DNA from: Candidatus Omnitrophota bacterium
GTDB taxonomy: Bacteria; Omnitrophota; Gorgyraeia; Zapsychrales; Fredricksoniimonadaceae
Length of the DNA stretch: 64,000 nucleotides
Assembly (NCBI GenBank): GCA_015233675.1
Contig: JADFXH010000005.1
Span: forward strand, 80,964 to 144,963
Direction: 5' to 3'
The notes beneath the pieces were generated by a model that saw only the letters and a list, made by a program, of their open reading frames with translations, searched no databases and was not told where the DNA came from. A program made the translations under genes and the position numbers. Below are positions 51,001 to 64,000 of this stretch, piece after piece (position 1 is the first letter of the stretch; every line of letters starts with the position of its first letter).

Positions 51001-54000
51001 ATCCTGCCTTCGGAAAAAATGGGAGTCAACTATCATTATCGAAGCGCGGATGCTTTACGTAAATTAGAAAGTGAAGGGAAGGTCATAACCGCGGTTGTCA
51101 ACGGGTACTTGCAGGGCTTGGCCGTGAGCAGTTTTGAAGATTCTTATGTGTTTGTGGATCCGGCCAGCAAGGTCAGATATGAAGGAACAATTCAAATTCG
51201 GGGATTGGATGAGATGTTAAGCGGCAGCAAGATAGCGGTTTTCGAATGTGGTGTTTCATGGTTGGAGGAATTAAAAAGAAAATATGATCATGAATTGATG
51301 AGCCTTTTTATATCACCGTTTAGTGACCGGTATTTGGCCGGAGCTATCAAGGATCCGATCACGATTTTTGCAGCTAAGGTGGGCATGGAAACAGGTCAGC
51401 GTATTCGTTTGCGCGAATACAAAGAAGCGGAAGCGTTAGCCAGAGAGGCGAGGATAGCGCAGTATCAGGGCCAGCGTATAGAGAAATTTTTCCAGCCGAC
51501 TAATCAGCAGGAATATGAAAAACGTCTTAAAGAAGCGGTCGAGCAAGTGGCCCGCAGGTTTGAATACCATAAAGTTTTACAAAATCCGTTGGCGAAAACA
51601 CAGGAGGAATATGAACAGAGAATGAGGCTTTTGACGGAAGAATTTGCAATAAGCGTGTTCAGGAATTTACTGGATGCCATCAACGTTAAGTATGAAGAGC
51701 AGGCAACGGCCGATAATTTAGCCCAAATGATCAGAAGGATAGACGTAAGGCAATATGAAACAAAGGCCAAATTGGTAATTTACAGCGGGCCTCCGGGAGG
51801 AGGCAGAAGCCTGGTGTGGGAGGGGTTTGTTAAACGTTACGGAGATCTGATAGAGGGGTTTGTATTATTCCATACGAGGGCAATGCACAGCGGCGAGTGG
51901 ATGGGGAGAAACTACCATTTCAGGAATGACGAACACTTAATAAAATTGCAGAAAGAAGGCAAGATCATTACGGCAAAGGTCAATGGCCAAATGCAGGGAT
52001 TGGCGGTTGTTTCATTCGAAGATTCATTTAAGTTTAAAGACCCTCAAACAGGCAACGAAATTAACAGCGTTGATCAAGTCCGGGGTATGGATGAAGTTTT
52101 CAAGGGCAATAAGATCGTTATTCTTGAATGCGGTCTGGCATGGCTTGAAGCTTTACGGGCGCAGTATGCGGATGAAATCATGAGTTTGTTTATCTCGCCA
52201 TTTAGTGAAGAAGAATTGACATGTACTCATTTGGATATTTCTGACTGCGAAAACACGGTGGAAAATGATCACGCCCGTCCGCTGCCGGGCCAGCCGCCGG
52301 TATCTGTTGAGACGGTGGCCGCAGAAATGGAAGGGCATGATGTCAACGCATTTGTTGTCTTGGAAAAATACAGCGCGGCGGTCGCAGTGGCTATCTTAGC
52401 GCTAATGTCTATTAAACAGGTTTTTATGGCAGAGAAGCTTGAAGAGATGGTAAGGGCAGGCTTGGTACGCGCCGGGCCGCTGAAGGGATTTTTAGCAACT
52501 ACATGGGATATTGACGGGCAGGAAAACATAATTGTCTCGGGTAATTCCGATATTAACGAACAGATTTTAAGCTTGGTTCATGAAATAGGGGCGATTACGT
52601 ATTTTGGCCTGAGTCATGGAGAAAACACTGTTCGTGAAGAGTTGACCCGTAAATGGCTGGACGCCCAGGGAGCGCTGATAGGATTAGAAGTTGTCATGCG
52701 AATTCATGGACGTGAGTGTAAGGAAGCAGAGAAGATCAAGAAACAGAACGAGGAAAAGCAAGCAGACGGGAAGATAGGGGAAATTGAGAAATTCTACCTG
52801 CCTACGGAACAGTCGGTTTTGGAAAGAAGGGTTCAGGAAGCGGTATTGCAGGTATTGCGGCGACGTGAATACAAGAAAGTCTTGGTCAATCAAAGGGCCT
52901 CCAGCGGAAAAGAGTTTGAGGCTACGAAAACGAGGTTAACAGAAGAGTTTGCGCAGGAGATATTTAGAAATGTGGCGGCAGCAATAGGGTTAGCGAAAGA
53001 TTTAGGGCAAGAGGTTTTGGATAAAGCAAGCGCGATGGAATTATTTGAGATGTTGAGACAGAAAGATTTAAGCCAGGTGTCGAGTAGTGCGAAGATGGCG
53101 ATTTATTCCGGCCCTCCCGGCGGAGGCAAGGGAGTGGTTTGGGATGAATTTATAAGTCTTTATGGGAAAATAAGCAGAGGAAAATTTGTGGACGAGCTGC
53201 CGCCTTTTGGGGGTGAAGTTTTTGATTGGCTAATGGAAAATAAAAGCTTGGAGGGGACTCCGGGTCAAGAAGGGTATATAGCTGTTAAGATTGACAAGAT
53301 CAAGAAAGACTTAGATAAAGAGCCGTTATATAAAGAAAACTGCGAAAAAATTATAGCATTCTTAAGGAAGTTTCAGTTTGGGGAGAAGGTTGACAGGCTT
53401 GTGTTATTCCACACAAGAGATATCCGTGCCGGAGAAAAAATGGGGGTCAACTACCATTATCGCAGCAAGGAACATTTATTCAAATTAGCAAAAGAAAGAA
53501 AGATCTTGGTAGCGGAGGTTAATGGTGAACTGCAAGGGCTAGCGGTTGGCGATTTTACAGATCCTTATGTGTATGTGGATCCCAAGAATCATAATAGGGT
53601 TGCAGAAGGGATTATTGCGAAACCAAGGTTTTCAGGAGCAACTTTCATTACAGGCACAATTTTGGACCCGGACAATAAAGGGGCAGACGGCGTTTGGGAA
53701 GAATACTCCCCAACAGAGGTTTGTTTAAAAGAAAACAAAAACCTGACAGAAGCTGTTGTGCGGGAAATTGCAAAGAGCGATTTTGGTAAGATTTGGGCTA
53801 TTGTGCAAGAAGCCCAGGAAGTGCCGAAGATATTAGGGATGAATACGTTATTCGGCGGGGAGAAGATCATAGTGCTGGAATGCGGCATGGCATGGTTTGA
53901 AGAATTGACGCGAAAATATGGCGACAAGTTAATAAGTATATTTATTTCACCATTTAGCGATCTGTATCTGTCCCGCGCGGTTCAAAATCCGTTCACGGTC

Positions 54001-57000
54001 TTATTAGCAAAAGTAAGCCTGGAAACAGCGCTACGTATTCATTATTATGAAGACAAAGACGCAAGAGATTTAAAAAATGACTCAGAGGATTTTATAAAAA
54101 AGACTTCAGAGAATTTACCGCTTCCGGAAATACGGATTGAAAGATTCTTCCAGCCCACAGAACAAACAATATTTGAGGATAAGGCCAAAGAAGGGGCCAT
54201 CCAGGTCAGCGGGCGCCACCAGTATAATAGTGAAGGGGATCCTTTGGTGAGCCCTGAGGTAAACACGCCCGATGCAGATTACGACCGGGGAATGGAACAG
54301 CTGGCGGAAGAATTTGCTTTAAGAATATTTAGGAATTTGTGTAATGTCATGAGATTAACGTACCCACCAACCCCTTCTGCGGAAGAGTTAGCAGAGCTAT
54401 TAAGATGGGAGGGTCTAAGTAAAGACCCCAAGGGAAGGCTCGTCCTTCTTGGGGGGGCACCCGCAGTGGGAAGGAAGTCAGTATTAGAAAGATTTATTGG
54501 GAGGTTTATTGATTTAGTGGAACGCTGCGTTGAGTTTTCATCTAGAGGGATGGGTAAGAAAGATACGATGGGAAGGACGTATCATTTCAGGAACAAGGAA
54601 CATCTGCTGAGGCTGAAAAATGAAGGCAAAATTATTTTACCACGAGTTGATGGGGGAATGGGGGCTGTTGCAAAACAAGCATTTGTACGCGCCCATCTTA
54701 ATGCTGACCTGATCTGGAGTAAATTGATAGAAAATGGCTATATTGGGGCTAATGGCGCGATCCAGGACAAATTCGTAGAACTTAGAGATTACTCCCAGAT
54801 GATCTTGCCCCAAACCCTTGATGACCGGAAAGAAAAAATTTATTTCATTTTGCAACAGGCCCAAATTGATTGGGAAACTCCGGGGCTGGCAGTGCAATCA
54901 TTTGAGGATACATACGAATTTAAAGACCCGCTGTCGAAAAAGGTCATAAAAGGTACGGCGCAGGTTCGCGGGCTGGATGATGTTTTAACGGACGGGAAGA
55001 TCGTTATTTTAGAATGCGGACGTGCGCTGTATAACTCGTTAAGAGCGCAGTATGAGGATGAACCATTGAGCATATTCATTTCTCCGTTTAGTGAAGAAGA
55101 GTTGTCGTGCGAACATTTGGGGAAGTTTGCTCCTGTTATTGCCGCACCTCAAGGAAGGCAAGATCCTGTATCTTCCGACGAAATAACCGCGCAGACAAAG
55201 ATCCCTGAAGGCCCTCTAGATTTGGGGCAGGCCTATCAAAGTATTCTTGATCGTCTTAAGGAGAAAGGTATTTTAGGTGAAGGGAGAATAACTAAAGAAT
55301 TTGTTGCGGACGTGTTTGCCAATCATTTTTGGCATAATTATACAGGTCGATTGCCGGATCAAGTAAGGATCGAGAGACGCGCGGCACAAACTATTATAGC
55401 GGACTTAATGATCAGGGAAGCCCGAAAAGATCCTTCGCGGCAGGTCATTTTATTTCATAATCCATATGAAAACCTTGTTGACGAGATGATCCCTGATATG
55501 GCAGTCGCAGAAATGCTTTTGATAGACCCTTATGGCACGCCAGAATTTGAAGAGAAAACCTTGGAGTGGTTGAATGATTTGCCGGTCATCATCAATGACG
55601 AGTGGACCAGAAGGCCGGAATTGCCCATTATAGGCTTTGAATTTAAGGGGCCGGCGGAAAAATACATCAAGGCCAGTGATCTGGTCAATGCCTACCAAAA
55701 ATATAATCCTGATGCCAGGATTATGGTTCCTGTTTTTGTAGAGAAGAACATAGTTGAGTTAAAAGAAATAAAAAATACACAACAGGATAATGCCCGGCCA
55801 TTACCCGGCCAGCCGATGGCTAGTGCTGAAGTTGTGTCCGTAGAGTTGGCCAAGCATGATTTGAAAGTTTTGACAATTTTGAAAGGAACTGATGCTTCCG
55901 TTGTTTTAGCTGTCAAAGCCATGAATGCGATGGGGGAAGAAGATAAAGCAGAACATCTGCTGATGATGGTACGCGCAGGCCGCGTACGGGCTGGTCCGGT
56001 AAAAGGATTCCTTGCGGCAACAGCCATGATTGACGGTCAAGAAAATATTATTCTCTCCAAGGCGTATCCCCAATACAACAGCCCCATAGAACAGTCTCTC
56101 TCGCTGGTCCATGAAATAGGCGCAACAAGTCAATTCAATTTAAGTCATGAAGCGAATGCAAAACGTGAAGCTGCGGTGTATTTGGCGAGGACATCGTTCG
56201 AGCATTTCAACATTATTCCCTCGGTGACAGTACGGGATCGTGAAAAAGATATGAAAGCCGGAGTGCGTGAATTTATAGAGTATGCTCAAGACAACGCAAT
56301 AACATATTCATTAGAGTTAAAGGATGTTCCGCAAGTAAATGAGCAAAGAAGGACACTGCATCCTAAATATCTTAACCCCAGGGCGCCAGAGCGAGAAAAG
56401 GGAACATTAAATTTGGCCGGAGATGAGCTGCAGAAACAGGCAGAAGACGGTACCTTATATATCTATGAGGCCGTAAAAGAGCTGAAGCCTTCGGTTATTT
56501 CTTTTCATTTAGGGTTTACAGGCCAAAGAATGCGCGAGCCAGAGAATGAAAGGAACATAGTAGTTGTCGACGATATGGAGTCCCAAGAAAAAATTAAGAA
56601 ATTAATTAAAGGAATTCAGTTGGTGGCTAAGGGATTACGGGACAGAGATTTCAAAGGTGATATCTTGCTTGAAAATTTAGTTTGCCAGCATGCAAATACT
56701 TACGAAAGAGTCTGCGAGCCTGATTTTATTCGTGGTCTATTTGACAGAATAGAAAAAGGATTAAACGTGGGCATGCTTATTGATACTTCACATTTAATTG
56801 TCAGCGCCAGTAATTTGAAAATAGATCCGATAAAGTATTTAAGGACCGTCCTTGATAAGCAAACAATAGGGCTTCTTAAAGAAGTGCATTTAACGGTACC
56901 GGAATATGACAAAAAGCAGGATTTGCTGTTTGACGCACATAGCCCTTTTTCGCAGAGCATTGGTTTGGAAGCCAATAGAATGTCCAGAAGACTATTAAGT

Positions 57001-60000
57001 CAAATTCTTAAAATACGTAAGGAAAATAAGATAACCTCGCCGCTTATCATCAACTTTGAGGTCAAAAACCCGGATGTTTATGCTAAAGATGAGCTTGTGG
57101 CATTAGTTAAATTCCTGGATCAGGAAAGGAATAAATTAACGACTGTCATTCGTTCGTCTTTGGAAGAAAGAAGGAGGGATGCCTCCCGTCCTCTGCCCGG
57201 CCAGCCGATGGCATCGCTGGAAGTTGTGGCGGCAGAACTAGCCAGGCATGACTTGAAAAGCTTTGTGAAGTTAAATATAAAAGATGAAGCTGTTGTTTTA
57301 GCAGTCAAGGCCATGATAGACATGAAAGAAAAGGATAAGGCAGAGCATCTTCAGATGATGGTACGCGAAGGGCGTGTACGTGCAGGTCCCATAGGATTCA
57401 TACTTGCCACAACGGCCATGATTAACGATCAAGAAAATATAATTCTCTCTAATACGTATCCCAAATATAACAGTTCCCTGGAACAGGCACTATCGTTGGT
57501 CCACGAACTCGGAGCTATGGCAAACTTTAAATTGAGCCATAATGAAAACAGAGCGCGTGAGATGAGCGCCCGCAAGATGGTTGAACGGACAGATGTTCAG
57601 TTGATCGTTGATTGGACATCTGAAAGAGAAGGGCTTCCTAAAGAGCCTGACTTTATCTGGCTGTTTGGAAGTAAATTTTCCCGTCCGGCGAAAGCAGTTG
57701 CCAGGCTTTGGAAAACCTTAGGAAGCAGCGCAAAGACGCGGGTGCTTATTACTGGCGGCGTGGGGAGAGAAACGGCGACGTTAACAGACCTTCGGAAGAA
57801 TTTTGGGATGACCGGACAGGTTGAAAGAAAAATTAATCAAATTTTTGATGAGTTATGTGATTTAAGAAACAGCCAAGGCGTTTCTAAGCTTTGGGAAGAA
57901 ATTGAATTCAGGTTTAATATTTACCGCGGCAGGGACCAGGAAAAGATTGATTTGCATGAAGCAGGAGAGTTATCAGAAGAGCAGAAAGATTGGATCAGGT
58001 TTTACGGGGAATATTTAGAAGGATCAGAGATGGATGATGTTAGAAACAGGAAAATTTCCATAGAGGAAATTGTGATCAATAAGCTGCTTGACCGACAATC
58101 CCGTTATCATCTTCCGGTCCCGGAGGGGATTGTTTATTATGCGATTTTGATAGAAAAAGGGGTGGATCCGGTGGCGATTCTTGTGGAAGCGCAGTCGACA
58201 ACAACCGTCGAAAATGTTCTTTATGGGGCAAAGGTCCTGAAGAAGGAAAAGTTGTGTCCTCAAACGATCATTCTAGTCCAGGAACCGTATATACAGCGGC
58301 GAGCCAAGGCTGCTTTCTTAAAGAAATACCCGTTGATCTATCCGGAGGGATGTAAGGACCTTCAAGCCTTCAGTTGTCCGCCGTTTGCTTATAAAGGCAA
58401 GGATGCCATGATCGCTTTGGGTGATGAAAAATTTGTCGAAATGAGAAAACGGGCGATTGGCGAAGTTGAAAGATTTTTGGTTTATCCTGAAGAAGACCGG
58501 ATCGTTGAAGTTTCAATTCCCGACAATATTATTGATGCCTATGATAGGCTCAAGGCAATTAATGAAGATTCCAGCGCTAAATTGTCCCAGGGGAAGATAG
58601 CTCAAGGGTATGAGCGAACAAGGATTTCCAACAACAAAAAAAGCATCGTCGAGTCTTTGGAGAACAGCAAATGGCAGGATGCGGTAGATGCTGTAGCTCG
58701 GCTGATATTAGTGGGCCAAGAGGATAAAGTGGGGGCTGTTTTGGCAGAGATCCTTGAGACGGCAGCAGGGAATCCCGTAAGCCCCGCAGAGCGCCGGCGG
58801 TCAAATCCGGACATCTTCCTAGCATCCCAGTCGAAACCAAAAGAGGATGTTCTTAATATGGCAGTCTCCGGCTGCAACGTTAGCCGTATCGAGCCCAAAC
58901 ACGATAATGAGGAGCCTATGGCCCGGGGTGTTTCTCTTGATATTGCATTGAAAGCCTTGTCTTTTTATAAGCTTTATCGTGCGGTCAAGGATAAGAAGAA
59001 TTCTGTACGTGACGGTATTTATGTCAGCGGCGACTTTGTTTTCGAAGATGATTGCGGAAGCCCGGTTGGAAAGATTGACGACCCCGATGAGGCAAACAAA
59101 GGTTATGAGAAAAGGTCGGTTTGTCCGCTCAAGGGCCTTTCCGGATTTGTGATCGTCCAACGCGAGAACGGCGTTTTCCACAAGGTCGTTCTGGGCGCGG
59201 ATGCGGCCTATGTCCTTTTGCGCAGGCCCTATGAACTTATTGAATCGGATAAAAATAATCCTCTTATGCACGAAGAAACCGCAGGCGAGCGTTACGGACG
59301 GTATGTTAAAGAAAAACATTTCAAAGGTAAAGCAGGAGGGATCGGTGTGCAAGACGAGGCTTTTTGGCCGCTGGTCAAGCGCATTTATGGAGATCCTTTT
59401 GTCATCCGCGGACTTCCGCTGGAGGCATTCTCAAAAAATTTACAGAAGGTTATGTCCCCATGTCCTGAAATGGATTGGAAAAAACTTAATGTAAAAGAAT
59501 GGGGAGGCAGCATCACGGACAATCTGAAGATTAAGGATGAACTCAAGGGTAAGCCTGATTTGGATATCCTTAGGGAGATCGCACGCGACTGCCTGTTTGC
59601 CGGTGATATTTGCTCTGCGGCTTGGGCGATCATGAATATGCTTATGCTTAAGTCGCCGGAAGAATACAGAAAATTTGAGGAAAAGGACTTGCAGAGGCTC
59701 GAGGTCCTGACAGGTGAGAAAGGTGAGCGGCTCTCCACGCGTTGTGCGGATTTTGATGAAATCGCGCTCGAATACAGGTTTTTGGAGACGGTTCTTAACC
59801 TTCTGAGTGACGGTGATGTGTATCAACAGGATCGTAAAAAAATATGGAGTGAGACAAGTCTCAAAGCTGAAGCGGTTAAGCATCTTTTCGATAATAACCT
59901 GCAGGTGCAGGATCGGCTTGAGAGAATTATTACATCCATCCTTAACGCGAATGAAGAGGATAGGGGGCTGCGTCTTAACGACCGACATCTATTGCCGGCG

Positions 60001-63000
60001 TTTGGTAATGAAATTCAGGATAGCTTGGGCGTTTTCAGGAGGAATGTTGTTGAGAATACGATAATCGAGACTGTCGGGATTGCTCTGAATAACGCGGGCA
60101 AGGAGTTCCTGGCGGTTGCCGCGCTCACACGATTGCTCCAGGATAATAACAAAAAGGTCATCTTTTATTGTTATCCTGAAGCTCACATGCTTTGCGACGT
60201 CCTTGTCTCTGAACAGGGGAGTGCAAATGCTTTTGTGGCAAGGATGATTGAGGGAACAAAATTGAGCAATGAAGAGAAAAGAAATATACTCGAATCCTTG
60301 GCCAAAGTGGAATGGAAGGAGCTTGGCAAGACCGCAGACGAACGCCGAGATTTCTTGTCCGTTGGTAAGAATGTATCCGCGCTGATTGTGATCGGTGAGG
60401 ACGGTTTTGCGGATATTCGTAAGCGTTTGAACATAGACGATCATGTGTCCCTTTTGTTGTGCCCTGTGTTTGTAGTGCGTTCAATCAAGAACATTGGGCC
60501 GGTACAGGTCATGGCCAGACAGGGCGAGCTATTCGACAGCCCTATAATGGACTATGACGTGACCTATTACCCTCTGCGTGTCAATCAACTAAAGAAGGGT
60601 GATGGGCATGCTCGTAAACCGAAGAAAGACCTGTTACAAGAAGTGGAGAGTTCTGCTCAAGAGCTTAAGGGCATAGATTCAAAGAGCAACAAAGAACAGG
60701 TGATCGATTGGTTTAACCAACTGATTTACGAAAAACCTGTCATAGCTTGCGGAATGATCCAGCATCTTTTGGACAATGGCGGTCTTGGAGGCGGCAAGGG
60801 GACGCTTGGGGAATACAAGGTTCAGATGCAGAATTGGCTGACGGAATGTGTCCGAAAGGCGAGGGAATCCAAGAAGGATGATTTTAAATATACACGCGAC
60901 GGGGGTGTTTATTTTGCCACACATTTTCAGCGGGAGAACTATAACGAAGCAGACGAAAACAGCAAGGCCCGAAGCCGCCGGCCCGGAATCGGAGATATTC
61001 TTGAGAACCGCAATGTCCTGGAAGACTTAAATCAGGAGGACAGGGATATTCTTAACGTTTTGGGAGTTGAAGTTGAGACTGGCGCAAAAAAACTTTTCTG
61101 CCAGAGCAACTTGCTTAACCCTGTTGGCATGGCCATGGCCATCGCGTTCATTAAGGCGTCCCGGGTGGCCATGCACATTAAAGGGGGTATTGTCATCGCG
61201 CGTCAGGTTGTCATTTTGGCCGAGCAGTCTAACGGCCGATATGAATTTATTTTACCGGAGGATATGATTAAGACCCTTAATCCTAAGATGAAGCTTAGGG
61301 TCTATACGGCCATGAGCGCTATCAAGTGTCGTAATGATGGTGAGATTAGCGTAGATCTCAGTTACGGACTGGCTCTGGTGCATACGGTCGACAGTGATAT
61401 CTCTGCCGTAGACCTGGATTTGAAGATGGCTCTTGACGAGCTAAAAGATCAGCAATGGGCCCAAAGCGGAGAAATAAAGAATTTGGCGATTAAGATAATA
61501 GACCAGAGCGCGAGCAATACCGGTACAGTCAGGTTCGAGGATATCAAGACACTGCTGGTTACTTCCATCGAGAAGTCTGAATTCAAAAACGATTTTGATG
61601 CGTTTAACTGGTCGTCTCCTTTGGCCCGAGTTCTCATCAAGAAGATCATTGGGGACCCTTATGCTGTGATCGGCCTTCCGTATTATGGGCTCAAAGATTA
61701 CTTTGCAAGTAACGGTATCGGCACGATAGCCCCTAATATACCGAAGGACAGGTATGACGGAAAGATTCCCGAAATTTCTCCGAGCCGTGTGGAAGATCAT
61801 CTCAAATTCTTAGCAAGGTACGCCCCCTCCCTGCAGAGGATCACAGCGCATCTAGTTGAGATCAATCGTAGTGGAATATTCGATGATGAGATGTTCCGGT
61901 TGCAAATCAGGCTCATCGCTATGAAAATCAAGATCCATCAGCGTCAGAGGCTTCTGTTTACGGCAATGACAGAAGATGTGGCCGCTATGAAATGTGCTCT
62001 GGATTTTTATTTGAATAAAACACAAGCACTTGGACTAAACCCGGGTATCGAAGCGGACCAACTTAAAAGCCAGCTTGATAAGCTCTGTGATGAATGGGAG
62101 AGGCTCAAAGGAAGAGACCTGGAAGCGTGGGACTATGATACGGTCCCCTTGCAGGCCCAGACTAAAATCTACAGGCTCATGGACGCACTGACAGCTATCG
62201 CGTTCGGATGGCCCCAACGCCGCGCCATGCCGAGGACCTTGGCCGGAGAGCCGAAACCTATGGAGCGCTTTAGCAGGGAATGGGCCGCGGATTTTTATCA
62301 GGGTGATCCGTGGGCCTTTGAAAAGGTTGACCGCACAGAGACAGCACTGCACAAACTGGATGTCTATTTAAAGGGCATGGACTTGAGCCGTAAAACGTTG
62401 CAGAAGGTAGGGACCAAAGATTTCAAAGTCCTGGCCATGGATGTTATGACTAAGATGGCCAGAGAAGATTTTGAAGGGGATATCCATGGGCTTGTCAGGG
62501 AAGTTCCGCAGGTTATGGAGAAGGGCTACTCTGCCCATGTTGTTAAGAAAGAGGCTTTGAGGAACAACGATCTTTTTGATTGGCTGATGAAAAACGGCTA
62601 CTTCGAAGAAAAAGAAGGAAAAGAAGCCCACCCAAAACCGTTAACAAACGACATGATAGCCGCTGTTAAAAAAGAGTACCCCTCCCTTTACGGATACATT
62701 TTAACTATTTTGAAACCGATCGACTACGACGTGGCTGAGTTCTTCAATAGGCTGGAGATGTCGAATGCTTCGGGCAATAAACGCGTAGGGATCTTCCTTA
62801 ACAATGCCGGGGCTGAAACGGTACTTGCGCTCTTTTTTGCTTATCTCCTGCTTAACCAGGGATTCACCGTGACGTTATATGCGGCGGTGTTCCCGTCGGT
62901 TAACACTGATGTGACTACGGATGAGGTTTATCTTCAGATTCCCTATGTGGACCAGATCCTCGCGGACAACAACGTCGGGGAATCGGAGGGAAGAAAAACG

Positions 63001-64000
63001 ATGGGAGCTTATCACAGGGATGGCCGGTTGGTTATCAAGCCATTCGAAGCGGATTATACCGACCCCGCTGATATGCAAGAGAAGATGATTATTCAGGCCA
63101 ACACACAGGATGTGTCCCTGGCGTTAGGCGAGTTGTGGTACGGGTATCTTGTCGGGCTTGGAGAAATTCAGATGGTGCCCGCGAACCGCGCGTTTGACTA
63201 TGGGTTTTCGCATGACGTTAAAGGCAAGCCGGTCAGAGACAACGGCGTTGCATTGTCCCTGAACACCGCGATCATGTGTCTTATGATCCACAAGAATCCG
63301 CGCCAACCTGTTGAACTGCGTAATAGCCGCAAGGCTATCCTGAAATCCGAACAGGGCGAATTTTTCCAGGCGGTAGGGCAGGCGTATAAAGCAATCGTCT
63401 TCCAGCTGTTCCGGGGAGGTGATTGGTATTTTGTTCGTCGGCAGTATGAGATTAAGTCAAAAACCGGACTAGATAAATTATTGCAGAACGGCAGCAGCGA
63501 TGATCGCGAGAAGAAAGATCTCAACGACAGTATCCAGAGGTCTTGTTCTTTTTATCTAAGCATACCCGAGAATAAGGAAAGGTTCGAACTTTTGCGCACG
63601 GACGATGTGGAGCGCCGGAGCATCCGATGGGCCTATAAGACGCCTTTACGCCGTATTCAGGTTAGTCTTGAAGAATCCCCTCAGGACAGCGAAATTTTAC
63701 TGCTTTCGGTCGATCTGGCGATTAATTTTGATCACATCCGCCGGGAAGCTTCTCCTGGGATAGCAGCGCTTCGTCGCAGCGAGATCCCTGTGTACCGCGA
63801 GAAAATCCCCTCACTTGTAGCTAATAATATCAGGGCGGCTCTAGAAGAGCTGACGACCAGCGATATCAAAGTGAAAAATCCATTCAAAGAATACAATGCG
63901 GTCAGGGTCGTTGTGGAGTACAAAGATGACTCAGATGAGCTGCAAACCAGAGTTGAAGGAGATACCAAAAAAGCTCCTGATTATTATATGGTTGATTTTG
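1..64000 (+). CDS. Single uninterrupted reading frame (+1) across the whole window; internal fragment (>=21,333 codons, no start, no stop) of a giant modular multi-pass membrane protein
   Basis: Frame +1 gave protein-like sequence with no stop wherever I translated (e.g. 1-1500, 2401-3060, 4246-6900, 8640-12400, 17521-20640, 29941-33200, 34978-39816, 43330-50100, 55741-64000). None of the 21 + strand ORFs in the supplied track is in frame 1 (all start at coordinates 0 or 2 mod 3), as expected if frame 1 is open at both edges and so not reported. Every recognisable enzyme motif falls in this frame. Confidence 0.93.
334..510 (+). other. Transmembrane helix cluster (2-3 helices)
   Basis: 'WAWEALFAVAYVPLALIGLGLLVVGLVNLVHGVAILGLTWKGALFFGYVLLFIANIL': long uncharged hydrophobic runs. 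Confidence 0.6.
856..978 (+). other. Transmembrane helix pair
   Basis: 'YYSWLFFSNAMLWAVSIFYFSHVVPGLWAYIPGALLLILT'. Confidence 0.55.
3103..4190 (+). other. Multi-pass transmembrane region of module A (about 8-10 helices)
   Basis: Successive hydrophobic runs, e.g. 'PIYNLLVFLFAMFLPLAPFSYIALPLILIGIQYML', 'MWSLVFTFGVLIPL', 'VQMGVALLIVLAFAPAHPLAIVTQWFFYMLPFVFIYGGF', 'TLSILGSLAGYFVNYLLFASTPLWIWLAAPWALTAIAVFV'. Confidence 0.6.
3661..4150 (+). repeat. Internal 102-aa (306-bp) duplication of a TM hairpin plus amphipathic segment
   Basis: 'LLFASTPLWIWLAAPWALTAIAVFVKELSKKEGVVKAFKESFEYFSKDEKIRG' (S-T-P at 3685) versus 'LVFVSTPLWIWLAAPLAVIFIVVLTAKIRGVEDIAKAFKQTVGYFSKDKTIDAG' (S-T-P at 3991). Confidence 0.7.
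4246..4659 (+). other. Connector module L1 (subtype b), unknown function
   Basis: 'DPTRALPGQPM' 4246-4278; 'GLIRAGPFEGFLAAV'; 'SLIHEIGAIAQFNLTDEEN' (HEIGA 4573-4587). Confidence 0.8.
4660..5541 (+). other. Guanylate-kinase-like module K1 (294 aa unit)
   Basis: 'IGLEIAKRIHNREYKEA', 'VLVNPWA', P-loop 'YSGPPGGGKG' 5062-5091, 'FHTRNIRDGEEMGKNYHYRN', 'VNGQLQGL', 'ILECGLAWFESL', 'ISPFS'. Confidence 0.7.
5542..6384 (+). other. Guanylate-kinase-like module K2
   Basis: 'VGLEIAKRIHSREYKEA'; P-loop 'YSGPPGGGKG' 5944-5973; 'FHSRNIRDGESMSKNYHYRN'; 'ILECGRSWFESL'; 'ISPFT'. Confidence 0.7.
6385..6828 (+). other. Connector module L2 (subtype c)
   Basis: 'DSSRPLPGKPM' 6385-6417; 'GLLRAGPLDGFLATI'; 'SLVHEIGAISKFNFSHEEN'. 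High nucleotide similarity to L12 (43330-43773). Confidence 0.8.
6829..7710 (+). other. Guanylate-kinase-like module K3 (882 bp)
   Basis: 'VGLEIAKRIHAGECKEA'; P-loop variant 'YSGPSAVGKK' 7231-7260; 'FHTRNIRKNEAMGKDYHYRN'; 'VLGCSLAWFEAL'. Confidence 0.65.
7711..8545 (+). other. Guanylate-kinase-like module K4
   Basis: 'VGLEIAKRIHAREVKEA'; P-loop 'YSGPPGGGKG' 8113-8142; 'FHTRNIRKGEVMGKDYHYRN'; 'ILECGLPWFESL'; 'ISPFSDDEL'. Confidence 0.7.
8640..9255 (+). other. Nudix hydrolase domain 1 (IDI-like subfamily look), intact Nudix box
   Basis: 'HYDGDWHRDVRVIMMNNRKEVLIQKRASTKDIEPGLFAESVGGH'. Nudix box 'GHSKIGETSDQNVVREIREEVGI' at 8899-8967 fits G-x5-E-x7-R-E-U-x-E-E-x-G-U exactly. Confidence 0.8.
9259..9645 (+). 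other. Connector module L3 (subtype a)
   Basis: 'DNTRPLPGKPM' 9259-9291; 'LAVKAMNAMGETDKA'; 'GRVRAGPVKGFLATT'; 'SLVHEIGAITEFNLSHKVN'. Confidence 0.8.
9745..10430 (+). other. Nudix-like domain 2 (Nudix box partly degenerate)
   Basis: 'HLDGTWHRAIAVLLVDKEGRLLVQVRSDDKKFYPGCRDSSAAGH'; box 'GHLGLTQSYIDGAIRETEEEVF' (about 10030-10095). The first Glu is Gln and the final Gly is Phe. Confidence 0.6.
10444..10830 (+). other. Connector module L4 (degenerate copy)
   Basis: 'DSSKPRAGRS' replaces D-x-x-R-x-L-P-G-Q-P-M; 'GHVRVGPMITAYGA' replaces RAGPxxGFLA; 'VLIHENNGASHQEN' replaces LVHEIGA...HEEN. Spacing is the same. Confidence 0.55.
10987..12318 (+). other. UDP-sugar pyrophosphorylase-like nucleotidyltransferase domain (UDPGP family look)
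   Basis: 'GVILVAGGTGSGLKHNGPKGTFP' (11110-11178) resembles the L-x-G-G-x-G-T-x-[LM]-x4-P-K-G signature. 'GGAGHGDAFDYV' (11461-) and 'MQFANVDNVLA' (about 11599-11631) sit in the expected order. Confidence 0.6.
12322..12738 (+). other. Connector module L5 (subtype d)
   Basis: 'DPTRALPGQPM' 12322-12354; 'GLVRAGPVEGFLATV'; 'SLIHEIGALLNFSHEQN'. Confidence 0.8.
12739..13626 (+). other. Guanylate-kinase-like module K5 (888 bp)
   Basis: 'IGLEVIKRIHSRESKEA'; P-loop 'YSGPPGGGKR' 13147-13176; 'FHTRAILPSEQMGVNFHYRS'; 'IFECGVSWFEIL'; 'ISPFS'. Confidence 0.65.
13627..14523 (+). other. Guanylate-kinase-like module K6
   Basis: 'VGMETGQRIRSREYKEA'; P-loop 'YSGPPGGGKG' 14032-14061; 'FHTRPMRSGEVMGKAYHFRN'; 'ILECGLAWFESL'. 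Confidence 0.7.
14524..14937 (+). other. Connector module L6 (subtype d)
   Basis: 'DTSRPLAGQPM' 14524-14556; 'GLVRAGPVEGFLATV'; 'SLVHEIGAVGRFERSHEEN'. Confidence 0.8.
14938..16029 (+). other. Guanylate-kinase-like module K7 with an insertion of about 70 aa after the P-loop helix
   Basis: 'IGLQVVNRIHFREGKEA'; P-loop 'YSGPPGGGKG' 15340-15369. Insertion at about 15400-15630 contains 'VFDWLMREGKLEGIAGQEG'. 'FHTREIRPKEAMGVNYHYRN'; 'VLECGMAWFEAL'. Confidence 0.65.
16030..16895 (+). other. Degenerate guanylate-kinase-like module K8
   Basis: 'VGLETGLRIHYYEYRAA'; P-loop 'LGGSPGVGKR' 16441-16470. The H-T-R motif is lost ('MFSIEGMGPNDKMGETYHFRN'); 'ILECGLSRYESL'; 'IAPFSDEEL'. Confidence 0.5.
16896..17544 (+). 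other. Unknown conserved domain X1 (about 215 aa; paralogue at 55111-55785)
   Basis: 'PLDLGQAYQSIVDRLREMGILGQGDGRISKEFVADVFANHFWHHYTG...RQVVLFHNPYEKLV...PIIGFEFKGPEGRYIKASDL' aligns colinearly with X1'. I recognise no family. Confidence 0.6.
17545..17935 (+). other. Connector module L7 (subtype a)
   Basis: 'DSTRPQPGQPM' 17545-17577; 'LAVKSMNAMEETDKAEHLLMMVREGRVRAGPVTGFLATT'; 'SLVHEIGATRTFNLTHEVN'. Confidence 0.8.
17950..18072 (+). other. Transmembrane anchor (1-2 helices) opening the GH-containing segment
   Basis: 'VAGSAVAAAFLAFMGKKNKIFSILMIGLVVVLLSSSIVIQ'. Confidence 0.6.
18127..18970 (+). other. Clan GH-A (TIM-barrel) glycoside-hydrolase-like domain 1
   Basis: Acid/base-type 'IIIELLNEANFDW' (N-E at 18451-18456) and nucleophile-type 'PFYIAEAGA' (E at 18748-18750), about 100 aa apart as in GH5-like enzymes. 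Confidence 0.5.
18971..19420 (+). other. Pro/Thr/Ala/Val-rich low-complexity linker
   Basis: 'PVASQPAAQPEEPKAETPTAPAATTANVIQLTTDKQVATAPTTAAPAVSAPTTTTPAVSVTTPAPAVT'. Confidence 0.75.
19747..20630 (+). other. Clan GH-A (TIM-barrel) glycoside-hydrolase-like domain 2
   Basis: 'KPYIIHGITL...MKEMGVNSIRMYYPP...NGMTVTVGIP'; acid/base-type 'ILMWEIGNEYN' (N-E at 20128-20133); nucleophile-type 'PVYLSEFGVN' (E at 20398-20400). The pattern is shared by GH5, GH2 and GH72-type enzymes, so I cannot assign a family by eye. Confidence 0.6.
20641..29955 (+). other. About 3,100 aa with no family I recognise (helical/coiled-coil stretches plus beta-rich stretches), probably extracytoplasmic
   Basis: Lies between the GH-A domains and the next TM helix (29956-30024). 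Asn/Gln/Lys-rich helical segments (e.g. 20760-20900, 23100-24560) alternate with Gly/Tyr/Val-rich beta-like segments (25200-29900). No P-loop or other cytosolic enzyme motifs seen. Confidence 0.4.
27241..27700 (+). repeat. Tandem 75-aa (225-bp) protein repeat, 2 copies
   Basis: 'GLHNGTYKFAPVKGKKELVLETRDGIKVGWPSKKNGDSNYQYVLRTANNTPINTLFSIPNKLGGVDF' versus 'GIHNGTYKFAVVKGKQQGVLETRAGDKIGWPSKIKGNGEPDFGFVLTTTNGTPISRMFSVPNAKGGVDF' (H-N-G at 27256 and 27481). Confidence 0.8.
29956..30024 (+). other. Transmembrane helix closing the GH-containing segment
   Basis: 'YPLLFSAGLIGLMVGLALIINLI' followed by basic 'RTIRYK'. Confidence 0.65.
30745..31080 (+). other. Transmembrane cluster (about 4 helices) of module B
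   Basis: 'VSPGLFAGLWNKFVSIF', 'LESAFILGVWVVSNIALW', 'LPVLSYFSAFASGAG', 'LLYGVLSFVVPAICALLLFVSERFIVGGLITYFANLFWL'. Confidence 0.55.
33100..34925 (+). other. Multi-pass transmembrane region of module B (more than 10 helices with two soluble loops)
   Basis: e.g. 'GIFFYDLMNYYAVPALIFFAICSVMLGMNMFGIL', 'VGMLLSVAINAFLVA', 'GVWAFVFGFMA', 'IFAGTIATVALIIGIIRLLVFLGAGWAVAGLIASGILYFVVSTVGFIGA', 'LTLTVALSLALLPLIPQLAIPALISHSLAAVAVVVSIFPVMLIILAYL', 'AFPFAGMVIAGAFLGGFWGAILFGAAMVIASVV', 'VGLPIGVALVLGMFAMLILF'. Confidence 0.65.
34978..35365 (+). other. Connector module L8 (subtype a)
   Basis: 'DPTRGLPGQPM' 34978-35010; 'LAVKAMNAIGEADKAEHLLMMVRQGRVRAGPVEGFLATT'; 'SLVHEAGAIAQFGLTHEEN'. Confidence 0.8.
35440..36135 (+). 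other. Nudix-like domain 3 (degenerate Nudix box)
   Basis: 'HRDGDWHSSVYIMIFNAEGGIILQRRGLNLQTDPGCWDGAACGH'; box 'GHTGLELDHRIAAAKETQEEVGL' (35725-35793). Position 7 is Leu instead of Glu and R-E is K-E. Confidence 0.55.
36136..36545 (+). other. Connector module L9 (subtype b)
   Basis: 'DSTRPIPGRPM' 36136-36168; 'GLIRAGPVKGFLAAV'; 'SLIHEIGATAHFNLIDKEN'. Nt 36161-36470 are almost identical to 39428-39737 (L10). Confidence 0.8.
36161..36470. repeat. Direct DNA repeat, copy 1 (partner 39428-39737, offset 3,267 bp, in frame)
   Basis: About 310 bp, nearly identical by eye. Differences seen include 'gcctgcttag' versus 'gcccgcttag' and 'aaatgaggggctt' versus 'aaggagggtctt'. Confidence 0.8.
36616..36678 (+). 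other. Transmembrane helix
   Basis: 'VFAKTMLTILVVGFLTLSMM'. Confidence 0.6.
37231..37290 (+). other. Transmembrane helix
   Basis: 'TAYAWVLGIIAASFILHLFL' followed by 'TRKERT'. Confidence 0.6.
37330..37930 (+). other. HEAT-like (PBS-lyase type) repeat domain, about 5 repeats
   Basis: 'RIQRTAITALGNRGDVRAIEPLLKQLADRSADMRRLAVEALKKLGA', 'YVQWAAVKELGQLGDKSAIDPVMEFF', 'NIQWIAAKELGELGDKSMIAPLMETI': the classic x-R-x-x-A-x-x-x-L-G-x-x-G-D-x-x-A-x-x-x-L periodicity. Confidence 0.7.
38068..38985 (+). other. Multi-pass transmembrane region (about 8 helices)
   Basis: 'CFALPSIIIAL', 'IEVALFSFAAIISLFTL', 'MLRIILVMVTLPFLSG', 'LIISSLIVFGVIGIVVLVLSGIEIL', 'IVGVPVMAFALFKVF', 'LFMLIGGAVVSLLGLGI', 'LAFFIAIVPMVFLL...LGVLLAGLL', 'GLFTCVTSTGILLTSLG', 'FVLLVLLYFVQLSMMGALFGIG'. 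Confidence 0.65.
39403..39816 (+). other. Connector module L10 (subtype b)
   Basis: 'DPARNLPGRPM' 39403-39435; 'GLIRAGPVKGFLAAV'; 'SLIHEIGAVSQFNLPDEEN'. Confidence 0.8.
39428..39737. repeat. Direct DNA repeat, copy 2 (partner 36161-36470)
   Basis: See copy 1. The two copies bracket the TM-HEAT-multiTM cassette. Confidence 0.8.
39817..40698 (+). other. Guanylate-kinase-like module K9 (882 bp)
   Basis: 'VGLEIAQRIHNREYKEA'; P-loop 'YSGPPGSGKG' 40219-40248; 'FHTREMHANEMMGRDYHFRT'; 'ILECGLAWFEQL'; 'ISPFS'. Confidence 0.7.
40699..41568 (+). other. Guanylate-kinase-like module K10
   Basis: 'IGLEIAKRIHNCEYKEA'; P-loop 'YSGPPGGGKG' 41101-41130; 'FNTRNIRRGEEMGRNYHFRN'; 'ILECGLAWFESL'. Confidence 0.7.
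41569..42201 (+). other. Connector module L11 (subtype b) with an insertion of about 73 aa
   Basis: 'DPTRALPGQEM' 41569-41601; 'GLIRAGPLEGFLAAV'. An insertion at about 41850-42075 sits between 'IVLTN' and 'HPVHRDLFERAASLVHEAGA'. Confidence 0.7.
42202..43329 (+). other. Guanylate-kinase-like module K11 with insertions
   Basis: 'VGLEIARRIHSREYIEA'; P-loop 'YSGPPGGGKG' 42637-42666; 'FHTRNIRQGEKMGVHYHYRN'. Insertion at about 42800-43030 contains 'VMKDWFTQIG...LVETGYLTKEHRFIEEF'. 'ILECGLAWFEAL'. Confidence 0.65.
43330..43773 (+). other. Connector module L12 (subtype c)
   Basis: 'DTSRPLPGKPM' 43330-43362; 'GLLRAGPLDGFLATI'; 'SLVHEIGAVSKFNFSHEEN'. Confidence 0.8.
43767..45481. repeat. In-frame tandem DNA duplication, period 882 bp; 833 bp shared with 1 mismatch
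   Basis: 43767-44599 versus 44649-45481, compared block by block by eye. The only difference I found is C at 44403 versus T at 45285 (ATC/ATT, both Ile). Confidence 0.85.
43774..44655 (+). other. Guanylate-kinase-like module K12 (882 bp)
   Basis: 'VGLEIAKRIHAREVKEA'; P-loop 'YSGPSGVGKE' 44176-44205; 'FHTRNIRKGEVMGKNYHYRN'; 'ILECGLSWFESL'. Confidence 0.7.
44656..45531 (+). other. Guanylate-kinase-like module K13 (near-identical tandem copy of K12)
   Basis: Same peptide as K12 through 'ISPF'; P-loop 45058-45087. Diverges after 45481 ('TNEELASLLQNLQARRQ'). Confidence 0.7.
45532..45945 (+). other. Connector module L13 (subtype b)
   Basis: 'DAARALPGQPM' 45532-45564; 'GLIRAGPYKEFLAAV'; 'SLIHEIGATIPFNLTDEEN'. 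Confidence 0.8.
46000..46990 (+). other. UPF0489-like domain (family of human C5orf22), tentative
   Basis: 'SVSFYCFDDHGRSVMYAMEAVARHEMPADGNIQLFLDEHSDGSP' (46234-46365) resembles the family N-terminal pattern (V-x-D/E-D-H-x-x-x-x-x-x-Y-x-A ... H-x-D-x-H-x-D). 'VFLNIDTDV' (about 46636-46662) resembles its 'LDIDLDFF' motif. Recalled from memory. Confidence 0.4.
46996..47385 (+). other. Connector module L14 (subtype a)
   Basis: 'DPARTLPGQPM' 46996-47028; 'LAVKSMNAMGEQDKAGHLLMMVREGLVRAGPVEGFLAAT'; 'SLVHEIGATARFNLSHQQN'. Confidence 0.8.
47386..48945 (+). other. Unknown region X3 (about 520 aa)
   Basis: No confident family. There is a weak resemblance to TraB/GumN/ChaN-type domains ('RPLIVIMEGGTV...' early and 'VVRDRSLASQLFRIKASCPQAVIWVTRGGLHF' at about 48040-48135, compare 'eRDxxMAxxL...vvaVvGaGH'). 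Confidence 0.25.
48946..49335 (+). other. Connector module L15 (subtype a; variant start motif)
   Basis: 'DSARSLPGETL' 48946-48978; 'LAVRSMNAMGEQDKAEHLLMMVREGRVRAGPVEGFLAAS'; 'SLVHEIGVTNIFNLSHEAN'. Confidence 0.8.
49465..50060 (+). other. 2H-phosphoesterase-like domain (LigT / cyclic phosphodiesterase superfamily), tentative
   Basis: Two H-h-[TS]-h motifs about 88 aa apart: 'PASFHMTICD' (H at 49606-49608) and 'FTGHISLAYP' (H at 49879-49881). The domain is about 200 aa. Confidence 0.5.
50068..50490 (+). other. Connector module L16 (subtype d)
   Basis: 'DHSRSLPGQPM' 50068-50100; 'GLVRAGPLEGFLATT'; 'GLVHEIGVVSLFNLSHEQN'. Confidence 0.8.
50491..51378 (+). other. Guanylate-kinase-like module K14 (888 bp; paralogue of K5)
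   Basis: 'IGLEVIKRIHARECKEA'; P-loop 'YSGPPGGGKR' 50899-50928; 'FHTREILPSEKMGVNYHYRS'; 'VFECGVSWLEEL'. Confidence 0.65.
51379..52266 (+). other. Guanylate-kinase-like module K15 (paralogue of K6; P-loop Lys replaced by Arg)
   Basis: 'VGMETGQRIRLREYKEA'; P-loop 'YSGPPGGGRS' 51781-51810; 'FHTRAMHSGEWMGRNYHFRN'; 'ILECGLAWLEAL'. Confidence 0.6.
52267..52677 (+). other. Connector module L17 (subtype d; variant start motif)
   Basis: 'DHARPLPGQPP' 52267-52299; 'GLVRAGPLKGFLATT'; 'SLVHEIGAITYFGLSHGEN'. Confidence 0.8.
52678..54012 (+). other. Guanylate-kinase-like module K16 with two insertions (paralogue of K7)
   Basis: 'IGLEVVMRIHGRECKEA'; P-loop 'YSGPPGGGKG' 53104-53133. First insertion contains 'VFDWLMENKSLEGTPGQEG' (about 53160-53400). 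'FHTRDIRAGEKMGVNYHYRS'. Second insertion at about 53590-53830. 'VLECGMAWFEEL'. Confidence 0.6.
54013..55110 (+). other. Degenerate guanylate-kinase-like module K17 (paralogue of K8)
   Basis: 'VSLETALRIHYYEDKDA'; P-loop remnant 'LLGGAPAVGRKS' (54445-54480); 'FSSRGMGKKDTMGRTYHFRN'. An insertion contains 'LIWSKLIENGYIGANG'. 'ILECGRALYNSL'; 'ISPFSEEEL'. Confidence 0.5.
55111..55785 (+). other. Unknown conserved domain X1' (paralogue of 16896-17544)
   Basis: 'PLDLGQAYQSILDRLKEKGILGEGRITKEFVADVFANHFWHNYTG...RQVILFHNPYENLV...PIIGFEFKGPAEKYIKASDL'. Confidence 0.6.
55786..56175 (+). other. Connector module L18 (subtype a)
   Basis: 'DNARPLPGQPM' 55786-55818; 'LAVKAMNAMGEEDKAEHLLMMVRAGRVRAGPVKGFLAAT'; 'SLVHEIGATSQFNLSHEAN'. 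Confidence 0.8.
56410..57120 (+). other. Xylose-isomerase-like TIM-barrel domain (DUF692/UPF0276-like), tentative
   Basis: Ordered motifs 'PSVISFHLGF', 'GDILLENLV', 'VGMLIDTSHLIVSA', 'LKEVHLTVPEY...LFDAHSP' resemble the H...E-N...D-x-x-H...H-L...D-x-H metal-ligand series of this fold. Confidence 0.35.
57178..57565 (+). other. Connector module L19 (subtype a)
   Basis: 'DASRPLPGQPM' 57178-57210; 'LAVKAMIDMKEKDKAEHLQMMVREGRVRAGPIGFILATT'; 'SLVHELGAMANFKLSHNEN'. Confidence 0.8.
57646..58400 (+). other. DUF218 (YdcF/SanA/ElyC-like) domain
   Basis: 'DFIWLFGSKFSRPAKAVARLWKTLGSSAKTRVLITGGVGRET' and 'GVDPVAILVEAQSTTTVENVLYGAKVLKKEKLCPQTIILVQEPYIQRRAKAAF' match the family pattern (LG...sGG...E..S.nT.EN.......lVT..yH..RA...F) as I recall it. 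Confidence 0.55.
60040..60560 (+). other. DUF89 (ARMT1-like damage-control phosphatase)-like core, copy 1, divergent
   Basis: 'ALNNAGKEFLAVAALTRLLQDNNKKVIFYCYPEAHMLCDVLVSE' compared with the family 'DNaGEixfDxxLixxLl..g.kVt..vk..P.iNDaT..D'. Confidence 0.3.
62740..63330 (+). other. DUF89 (ARMT1-like)-like core, copy 2
   Basis: 'VGIFLNNAGAETVLALFFAYLLLNQGFTVTLYAAVFPSVNTDVTTDEV' (62785-62928). It keeps the N-x-G-x-E and P-x-x-N-x-D-x-T-x-x-E/D spacing, but the first metal-binding Asp is Asn. Confidence 0.4.

Follow-up and report, generated by a model that had tools for sequence, protein, structure and literature searches.

A giant reading frame in Candidatus Omnitrophota

The DNA analyzed here, referred to as the window, is a stretch of 64,000 nucleotides (nt) of contig JADFXH010000005.1 (GenBank assembly GCA_015233675.1, positions 80,964 to 144,963 of the forward strand) from a Candidatus Omnitrophota bacterium. 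The entire window is a single open reading frame (ORF) in frame 1 of the + strand, with 21,333 codons (1..63999) and 0 stop codons, open at both ends, and a stop scan and Pfam matches together identify it as an internal piece of a giant multi-enzyme gene. The Pfam matches along the ORF include guanylate-kinase-like and NUDIX domains, both of which are repeated, HEAT repeats, AAA-type P-loops and a GH2 TIM barrel, and those close to the 3' end are MbnB-like, DUF218, Maf and ARMT1/DUF89 matches. Self-comparison reveals 19-20 copies of a connector and duplicated guanylate-kinase-like units; downstream of 57,585, where the last connector ends, no segment has a paralogue within the window. The last connector (57172..57585) is followed by a DUF218-like cargo cassette (57592..58551) and by a conserved supermodule in which a Maf-like and a DUF89-like domain occur twice and are followed by a tail (58663..63999 and beyond the window). 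The synonymous codon usage of the ORF changes at the 5' boundary of this module. We propose that the module may be a cassette with a compositional history of its own inside a mosaic gene of the Omnitrophota type, a reading to which we assign a probability of about one half.

Giant multi-enzyme proteins have been documented in Candidatus Omnitrophota (West-Roberts et al., 2023, bioRxiv 10.1101/2023.11.21.568195), and giant proteins of a 'multi-enzyme metabolic cluster' class are known as well (Nielsen and Lui, 2026, bioRxiv 10.64898/2026.06.07.730766). This 'multi-enzyme' type is taken here as an ORF of 10,000 amino acids (aa) or more in which many distinct enzyme domains are combined with internal domain repeats. 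The protein encoded in the window is of this type, since at least 21,333 aa are open, matches to over 12 Pfam families are spread along them, Guanylate_kin and NUDIX domains recur and there are 19-20 connectors, and it resembles the giant proteins of Omnitrophota both in that an ORF of >21,000 codons is tiled with NUDIX, HEAT, AAA_5 and glycosyl hydrolase domains and in that its internal repeats have diverged at the nucleotide level. The main texts of the two papers do not treat codon usage, the word 'codon' occurring either 0 times or once, as 'start codon', and these main texts mention neither the connector repeat nor the (Maf-DUF89) x2 module. What is new here is that a codon-usage island inside a gene marks where a cassette begins, a modest observation within a known kind of gene.

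A change-point in synonymous codon usage

Reading from the sequence only, an earlier annotation of the window (the sequence-only reading) had claimed a codon-usage discontinuity in its last ~6 kb, and change-point statistics bear this out. The best single split of synonymous usage across the 64 kb falls at 58.05-58.6 kb, with a heterogeneity statistic of G=188, as compared with a maximum split statistic of 62±7, and of 84 at the largest, in 200 shuffles that preserve the amino acids. Measured as deviation from the flanks, G is 172-188 versus a permutation maximum of 78-84, and the GC content at third codon positions (GC3) is 0.538 in the block versus 0.457 in the bulk of the ORF. Optimal partitioning by dynamic programming places a break in GC3 at 58,620 (0.451 to 0.542) and a break in the frequency of A at third positions (A3) at 58,860 (0.26 to 0.174), and a profile-likelihood scan yields a best estimate of 58,621 with a support interval (two units of log likelihood, lnL) of 58051..58861. 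Top-down binary segmentation of GC3 under a heavy penalty found no break, the heterogeneity being patchy. Overall GC, which had been judged higher by eye, climbs from about 0.43-0.45 to 0.47-0.49 in the terminal block. The discontinuity is real, far beyond chance and modest in size.

The position of the break differs from that first suggested. The change had been thought to coincide with the end of the last connector and of the connector-cargo architecture, but the interval of 58,051-58,861 contains the 5' boundary of the module (58,663-58,800) and excludes the end of the last connector (57,585), which as a break point is ~11 lnL units worse in the profile-likelihood scan. The break lies ~1 kb further on, after the DUF218-like cargo, whose codon usage is that of the bulk (nt 57,634-58,560; GC3 0.447; TTA in 7/28 Leu codons). 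Elsewhere in the ORF, no connector occurs over 5,675 aa (aa 5983-11657, nt 17950-34970), more than double the length of the terminal block without connectors, and a lack of connectors is thus not peculiar to the 3' end. This longer stretch has a GH2 TIM-barrel match at nt about 19761-20427, and large parts of it are without Pfam match.

At third positions, the shift from bulk to block consists of a decrease of A (A3, 0.255 to 0.177) and an increase of C (C3, 0.191 to 0.247), with T steady (T3, 0.288 to 0.284). TTA, CTA and TCA, which the sequence-only reading had described as nearly lacking in the block, are indeed scarce as a group: 31 are found in 58621-63999 versus 81.5±7.4 expected for the amino acids of the block under the synonymous usage of the bulk. 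TTA makes up 0.10 of the Leu codons in aa 19212-21333 versus 0.16-0.62 in all other segments, at the same Leu content, and upstream it is, as had been noted, common in the GLEIA motif, where it is the Leu codon in 7 of the 9 copies. Codon by codon, the claimed scarcity stands for TTA and TCA and not for CTA (0.05 versus 0.04-0.06 of Leu codons). The loss also extends to codons that had not been named, with GCA, ATA, CCA, CAA, AGA and GTA each reduced by roughly 30-60% and the NNA codons other than the three at 286 versus 367±15 expected. A-ending codons are lost across the board, and not only those that give antisense stops.

Repeats that share codons by descent might inflate the upstream frequency of TTA and so produce the contrast artificially. 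TTA does account for 0.30-0.41 of Leu codons in repeated segments versus 0.20-0.27 in most of the long unique segments upstream, and the TTA shared by the GLEIA copies is of this kind. The permutation tests, however, are conditional on the amino acid, and when the block is compared with the unique upstream sequence only (8,850 codons), TTA is still 0.10 versus 0.26 of Leu codons and A3 0.188 versus 0.244. Paralogy accounts for part of the contrast and is rejected on this comparison as its sole cause, for which we consider it very improbable.

Relatives of the module and their contexts

The sequence-only reading had called for a search for homologues of 58600-64000 as free-standing genes, and such genes exist (L003 and L005/P0009, below). 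Relatives of the module are very rare. A full HMMER search with aa 19601-20800 against 1.84 billion representative proteins returned only 6, and a homologue search through a word index, run with all 2,133 aa of the block, returned only P0001, for the DUF218 part; relatives of ~35% identity escape this index. The DNA of three further relatives (L003, L004 and L005) was recovered by pattern scans derived from a 3-sequence alignment (alignment A3). The relatives that are named taxonomically come from only two metagenome-assembled genomes (MAGs) of Candidatus Omnitrophota. The nearest ones are 45-46% identical to the window in the best-conserved 400 aa.

Colinearity with P0008 (aa 193-2033), L003, L005 and L004 delimits the module, which is ~1,750-1,900 aa long. 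P0008, a protein of 4,322 aa encoded at the start of a 15.9-kb contig of the Joint Genome Institute (JGI) and hence 5'-truncated, is colinear with aa 19555-21332 of the window. A single connector (aa 68-198), which shares 44% identity with the last connector of the window, stands at its start, and the module follows directly; its connector and module have diverged from those of the window about equally (34-47%). Downstream of the module, P0008 (gene nt 7-12975) continues with Dus-like (PF01207) and 5'-nucleotidase (PF06189) domains before its stop codon; by eye, a segment resembling HD/RelA-SpoT and a long basic low-complexity tail are also discernible in its sequence. L004, from an Omnitrophota MAG of 54% GC, is 45% identical to the window and (at 1558-3522) runs 655 aa beyond the point at which the window ends, a part that is 41% identical to P0008. 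By homology to P0008 and L004, the gene in the window probably runs some 2,000 or more codons past nt 64,000.

In other relatives, the module occurs outside such a context. On contig L003 (35.5% GC), an ORF that spans at least 1,914 aa has a signal-peptide-like predicted start, after which it is colinear with aa 19633-21295 of the window (E 3e-135). L005/P0009, on a 110-kb contig of another Candidatus Omnitrophota MAG (44% GC), is a protein of 3,508 aa in which an unrelated N-terminal part precedes the module. On these two contigs, L003 and L005, the module makes up most of a free-standing protein that is predicted to be secreted or membrane-anchored. P0010 is a further homologue among those that are free-standing or fused differently. 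The 5' boundary of homology lies at 58,663 in comparison with P0008 and at 58,720-58,800 in comparison with P0011 and P0008. Phylogenetically, the modules fall into two clades, one with the free-standing L005 and L003 and the other with the window, P0008 and L004, all of which are embedded in larger proteins. Judged from these homologies, the module is an independent evolutionary unit. The genes adjoining L003, L005 and L001 are ordinary ones (LptD, TatD, MatE, a histidine kinase and an epimerase fusion), and they give no handle on expression-linked codon preference.

Antisense reading frames

The ten antisense ORFs on which the sequence-only reading was based are all present at the coordinates it gave and all end at 0 mod 3, and the two long antisense ORFs upstream (13284-13934 and 14199-14981) end, as it had stated, at 2 mod 3. 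Within 58819..63306 on the - strand, the codon-aligned series comprises 58819-59352, 59440-59988, 59989-60444, 60679-60924, 61441-61800, 62035-62352, 62368-62631, 62875-63078 and 63124-63306. The upstream stretch at 12-15 kb (12178-15000), which is rich in G at third positions, holds the longest antisense ORFs of the other phase.

Codon-aligned antisense stops decrease from 42.9 per 1000 codons in nt 1-58620 to 17.3 in nt 58621-63999, while the other two antisense phases are flat (32.2 to 34.6 and 57.0 to 63.6). The frame is nearly open because its stops arise only from sense TTA, CTA and TCA, two of which (TTA and TCA) are strongly depleted, and the antisense ORFs are passive by-products of this scarcity. 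The converse explanation would be that overlapping antisense genes force the sense strand to avoid the three codons. Ten ORFs of 60-182 aa do share one phase over 5 kb, and TTA and TCA together, at 0.38 of expectation, are more strongly depleted than the other NNA codons, at 0.78. TTA, however, is the most AT-rich and GC-sensitive synonymous codon, for which the steepest fall is expected under a shift in GC; CTA is undepleted; and CCA, GTA, AGA and ATA are also about halved although they are unable to make antisense stops. Moreover, the longest open antisense runs (203, 182 and 163 codons) are no longer than those in synonymous shuffles within the block (P=0.58), 31 stops remain in the frame, and the corresponding frame is not open in the homologous modules, where stop-generating codons occur at 30-70 (L003) and 13-43 (L005) per 1000. 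The shuffle test and the lack of conservation in L003 and L005 effectively refute real antisense genes. Annotators should not take the long antisense ORFs at 58.8-63.3 kb for genes.

Regional codon usage elsewhere in the gene

The terminal block is the largest of several codon-usage islands, others being found at 36.5-39.4 kb (GC3 0.33) and at 48.3-49.2 kb (GC3 0.66). Even without the last block, GC3 is overdispersed along the ORF (chi2 185, df 64), and it correlates with GC at first codon positions (GC1; r=0.35). The paralogous connectors, ranging in GC3 from 0.41 to 0.59, track their flanks (r=0.68, p=0.003). The low-GC3 island (36541-39360; A3 0.355) covers HEAT-repeat cargo, and at the 1000-codon scale it deviates more than the terminal block does (G=161 versus 137). 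The high-GC3 island (48301-49200) is short and contains a connector copy.

A proposed compositional history of the terminal module

Translation of a giant ORF proceeds as one unit, and internal differences in codon usage therefore cannot come from expression level; such a gene is a natural test of history, recombination and local mutation bias as causes of regional codon usage. The module in the window has GC3 0.538, A3 0.175 and GC1 0.554. Across the relatives, GC3 of the module follows the host, being 0.327 in L003, 0.453 in L005 and 0.63 in L004, and in L005 it is only 0.02 above that of the remainder of the same ORF (0.425-0.438); the codon bias is therefore not intrinsic to the module. 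When GC at first and second positions (GC12) is plotted against GC3, the window module (0.448, 0.538) lies on the line of its relatives, between L005 and L004. The shift extends to non-synonymous composition: GC1 is 0.554 in the window module versus 0.519 in the L005 module, and the ratio of G, A, R and P to F, Y, M, I, N and K residues (GARP/FYMINK) is 0.81 in the window module, 0.68 in L005, 0.97 in P0008 and 1.15 in L004. The block looks equilibrated to a background of ~47-48% GC within a gene of 44.6% GC, and its clade partners P0008 and L004 look GC-richer. At residues that differ in all three relatives, GC3 is 0.532 and A3 0.188 (bulk, 0.457 and 0.255); accuracy selection at conserved residues is not supported as the cause, the variable sites being shifted as strongly as the conserved ones.

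The GC3 that follows the host, the shifted variable sites, the non-synonymous shift and the regional usage elsewhere in the gene together argue for a mosaic history. The module may have been brought into the gene as a cassette from a somewhat GC-richer relative, or recombination with a homologous cassette of such a relative may last have replaced its sequence. Other cassettes of the mosaic gene show islands of the same kind. We infer that history, and not ongoing selection or mutation bias, causes the shift, and the newcomer may be either the block or the bulk. The suggestion in the sequence-only reading of a different evolutionary origin is thus borne out to the extent that the block is a discrete unit with free-standing homologues and shifted GC1 and amino-acid composition, whereas horizontal acquisition is not demonstrated at 45-46% identity.

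The same reading had offered different translational constraints as a second possibility. In this alternative, the module would be a long-time resident whose usage is kept apart in situ by domain-specific selection or by local mutation or repair bias. Such selection might promote accuracy or speed in catalytic domains or act against codons of the TTA, ATA and AGA type. The order connector-then-module, which is common to the deeply diverged P0008, is consistent with long residence. In each of the three loci with available DNA, GC3 within the module peaks and A3 is at its minimum in DUF89-2, the second and best-conserved DUF89-like domain (GC3/A3 of 0.63/0.115 in the window, about 0.49-0.50/0.18 in L005 and 0.37-0.38/0.25 in L003). 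A3 is lowest at fully conserved sites (0.136 versus 0.188), and, as is seen in codon sets under selection, NNC has risen over NNT for His, Asn, Ile, Tyr and Asp. Expression level, however, cannot vary along an ORF that is one translation unit; the variable sites hold almost the full shift; in L005 the module exceeds its flanks by only 0.02 of GC3; GC1 and amino-acid composition are shifted too; and functionally identical connector paralogues differ by 0.18 GC3 with their neighbourhood. A cause in situ is accordingly disfavoured, and we regard it as unlikely, while it keeps an appreciable probability.

It is also conceivable that the contig is an assembly chimera in which homologous giant genes from a pair of organisms or strains that occur together and differ in GC have been joined. 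Assembly is difficult for giant repetitive genes, and several compositional islands are found in this one. The break, however, lies in unique sequence, 0.5-1.3 kb away from the last connector (end at 57,585), which is the closest repeat, the frame is open across it, and the order connector, (cassette), module is matched by the independent contig of P0008. Homologues 0.08 apart in GC3 would presumably not share the long identical stretch that such a join needs. We consider a chimera improbable.

Several points weigh against the cassette reading itself. No close donor was found, the best identity being 45-46%, at which recency is not demonstrable. Connector and module follow one another also in P0008 at deep divergence, so that the fusion may predate the split of the lineages; in an ancient fusion, an imported bias would be expected to have faded long ago, unless the module was later replaced by a homologous one. 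With T3 steady and most of the gain in C3, the shift is not exactly the change from A and T to G and C that separates L005 from L004, and its size (+0.08 GC3, +3% GC) is no larger than the spread of GC3 among neighbouring genes on the L005 contig (0.395-0.527). At the cassette junctions, a search for flanking direct repeats and insertion scars found only chance-level short repeats around 57.3-59.0 kb, and no integrase or tRNA is present at the junction, the region being wholly coding in one frame.

In the model of Lawrence and Ochman, compositional islands are said to mark horizontally acquired DNA and to ameliorate. The terminal block resembles such islands in its abrupt and strong change of usage at the boundary of a unit that is found in other contexts. 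It differs from them in that it lies inside one reading frame, is small in effect (+0.08 GC3) and is one for which no close donor was found, as well as in the absence of mobility genes, tRNA or flanking repeats. Its GC1 is shifted along with GC3, which is more like equilibrium elsewhere than like a partly ameliorated import.

A bolder version, which we consider quite unlikely, would have giant genes of the Omnitrophota type continually rebuilt as species exchange whole enzyme cassettes, leaving a stratigraphy of codon usage within a single reading frame. The connectors would serve as recombination landmarks and possibly as self-processing sites at which the polyprotein is cut into separate enzymes of nucleotide metabolism, and the terminal module would be the cassette most recently exchanged. 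If the islands are historical, codon usage could offer an inexpensive way to map where cassettes meet and in which order genes of 20,000 to 150,000 codons were assembled.

Domains of the (Maf + DUF89) x2 module

Pfam matches and internal colinearity give the order of domains as DUF218-like, Maf-like 1, a helical region with DUF89-like 1, Maf-like 2, a second helical region, DUF89-like 2 and a conserved tail, all on the + strand. The first Maf-like nucleoside triphosphate (NTP) pyrophosphatase domain (Maf1; 58813..59448) matches PF02545 at 41.5-44 bits (cutoff 27). The catalytic and substrate motifs of the family are an N-terminal S-x-S-(P)-R-R, an acidic E, a K, the catalytic D and a C-terminal KAGxYGIQ. 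In the alignment of Maf1 (alignment A4), S11, E38, K57 and D78 are invariant and KAGGIGVQD is present, and the window reads S-Q-S-K-P-K where L003 and L005 read S-x-S-P-R-R/K. The first DUF89/ARMT1-like domain (59716..60369) is divergent, its match to PF01937 (E 3.6e-4, 20.3 bits) being below the cutoff of 25, and it has a weak colinear match to DUF89-2. Maf-like domain 2 (Maf2; 61042..61707) is likewise divergent and below the cutoff of 27 for PF02545 (E 4.3e-4, 20.5 bits); its alignment to the P0012 Maf domain has E 1.8e-5, and its GDPYAVIGLP corresponds to GDPFVIRGLP of Maf1.

DUF89-2 (62728..63150; PF01937, 27.9-38.3 bits, cutoff 25), the domain with the highest GC3, is also the best-conserved part of the module. 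The family profile built on alignment A3 matches solved damage-control phosphatases of Schizosaccharomyces pombe, 7t7k (E 1.5e-4) and 8tkz. The first metal motif of DUF89-2 is NNAG(A/D)E versus DNAGxE, and the solved 8tkz likewise reads NNAGFE; the second is LGELWY in place of KGDLNY (KGDxNY in the family). The conserved C-terminal tail (63151..63999), delimited with the same alignment, is cut by the end of the window, and relatives continue for ~100-150 conserved residues.

The module is internally duplicated (58813-60369 versus 61042-63150), and its halves are similar at the motif level only, as in GDPFVIRGLP/GDPYAVIGLP and IALNNAGKE/IFLNNAGAE. The duplication is old because it is common to the window, P0008, L003 and L005. 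With respect to the known Maf/YhdE/YceF (PF02545) and DUF89/ARMT1 (PF01937) families, Maf1 and DUF89-2 are above the Pfam cutoffs and Maf2 and DUF89-1 below, and the window differs in that the domains are fused as two successive pairs in a ~1,800-aa unit that also holds long helical inserts and ends in a conserved tail. The pairing of pyrophosphatase and phosphatase, the Dus-like and 5'-nucleotidase domains of P0008 and the guanylate-kinase-like and NUDIX domains upstream suggest a role of the module in nucleotide processing. Delimited in this way, the previously undescribed and very rare (Maf + DUF89) x2 supermodule of ~1,800 aa is open to study as a free-standing protein.

Connectors and the DUF218-like cassette

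The connector is a segment of ~135 aa with invariant residues RAGP...L-x-H-E-x-G...N-x-x-R. Examples found by self-comparison and with a hidden Markov model (HMM), all on the + strand, are 4240-4641, 6382-6789, 9256-9663, 12316-12723, 46993-47400, 55780-56175 and 57172-57585. The last of these, which is also the last of about 19-20 in the window, matches the connector HMM with E 1e-63 (aa 19058-19195) and has a bulk-like GC3 of 0.446-0.486. Outside the window, connectors were found in only 6 short proteins among 5.8 billion and in P0008. The predicted structure of the connector (AlphaFold2) is confident, with a predicted local distance difference test (pLDDT) of 87.9 and a predicted template modelling score (pTM) of 0.83. 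Its closest folds in the PDB are those of minimal metallopeptidases, namely selecase, which makes up the top 7 matches (probability 0.96-0.99, E 0.02-0.06, template modelling score 0.49-0.57 on the target), and jannalysin, with SPRTN, IrrE/PprI and MATCAP among the further matches. The second zinc-binding His of HExxH is missing from all 17 of 17 aligned connectors. On this predicted fold, the connector may be a peptidase or pseudopeptidase joint of the polyprotein. A comparison of the connector's sequence profile with the PDB yielded only RNase PH, a weak and probably spurious match, and the fold search is more informative.

The DUF218-like cassette matches PF02698 at 43.9 bits (cutoff 27.6) over nt about 58117-58347. 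It is 44% identical to aa 64-379, in the N-terminal part, of P0001, a free-standing protein of 1,284 aa from GCA_964440235.1. In comparison with P0008 (aa 198-193 junction), the window has this cassette of ~360 aa as an extra, placed exactly between the last connector and the module.

MARTX toxins, polymorphic toxins and polyvalent proteins are multi-effector proteins with swappable cargo domains. By analogy, the gene in the window may be built alike, as its repeated spacer alternates with variable enzymatic cargo and its cargo also occurs free-standing or in other fusions; another point of resemblance is the DUF218-like cassette, an insertion where spacer and cargo meet when the window is compared with P0008. 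The window differs from these systems in having no Pfam homology to their repeats or processing domains, and its spacer is minigluzincin-like, without the second zinc-binding His.

One further connector-bearing sequence, L002 (JGI 3300019788, contig Ga0182028_1510952), is 5,880 nt long and carries 12 ORFs of 31-143 aa on both strands; it has the appearance of a similar giant gene in an assembly that is fragmented or riddled with frameshifts.

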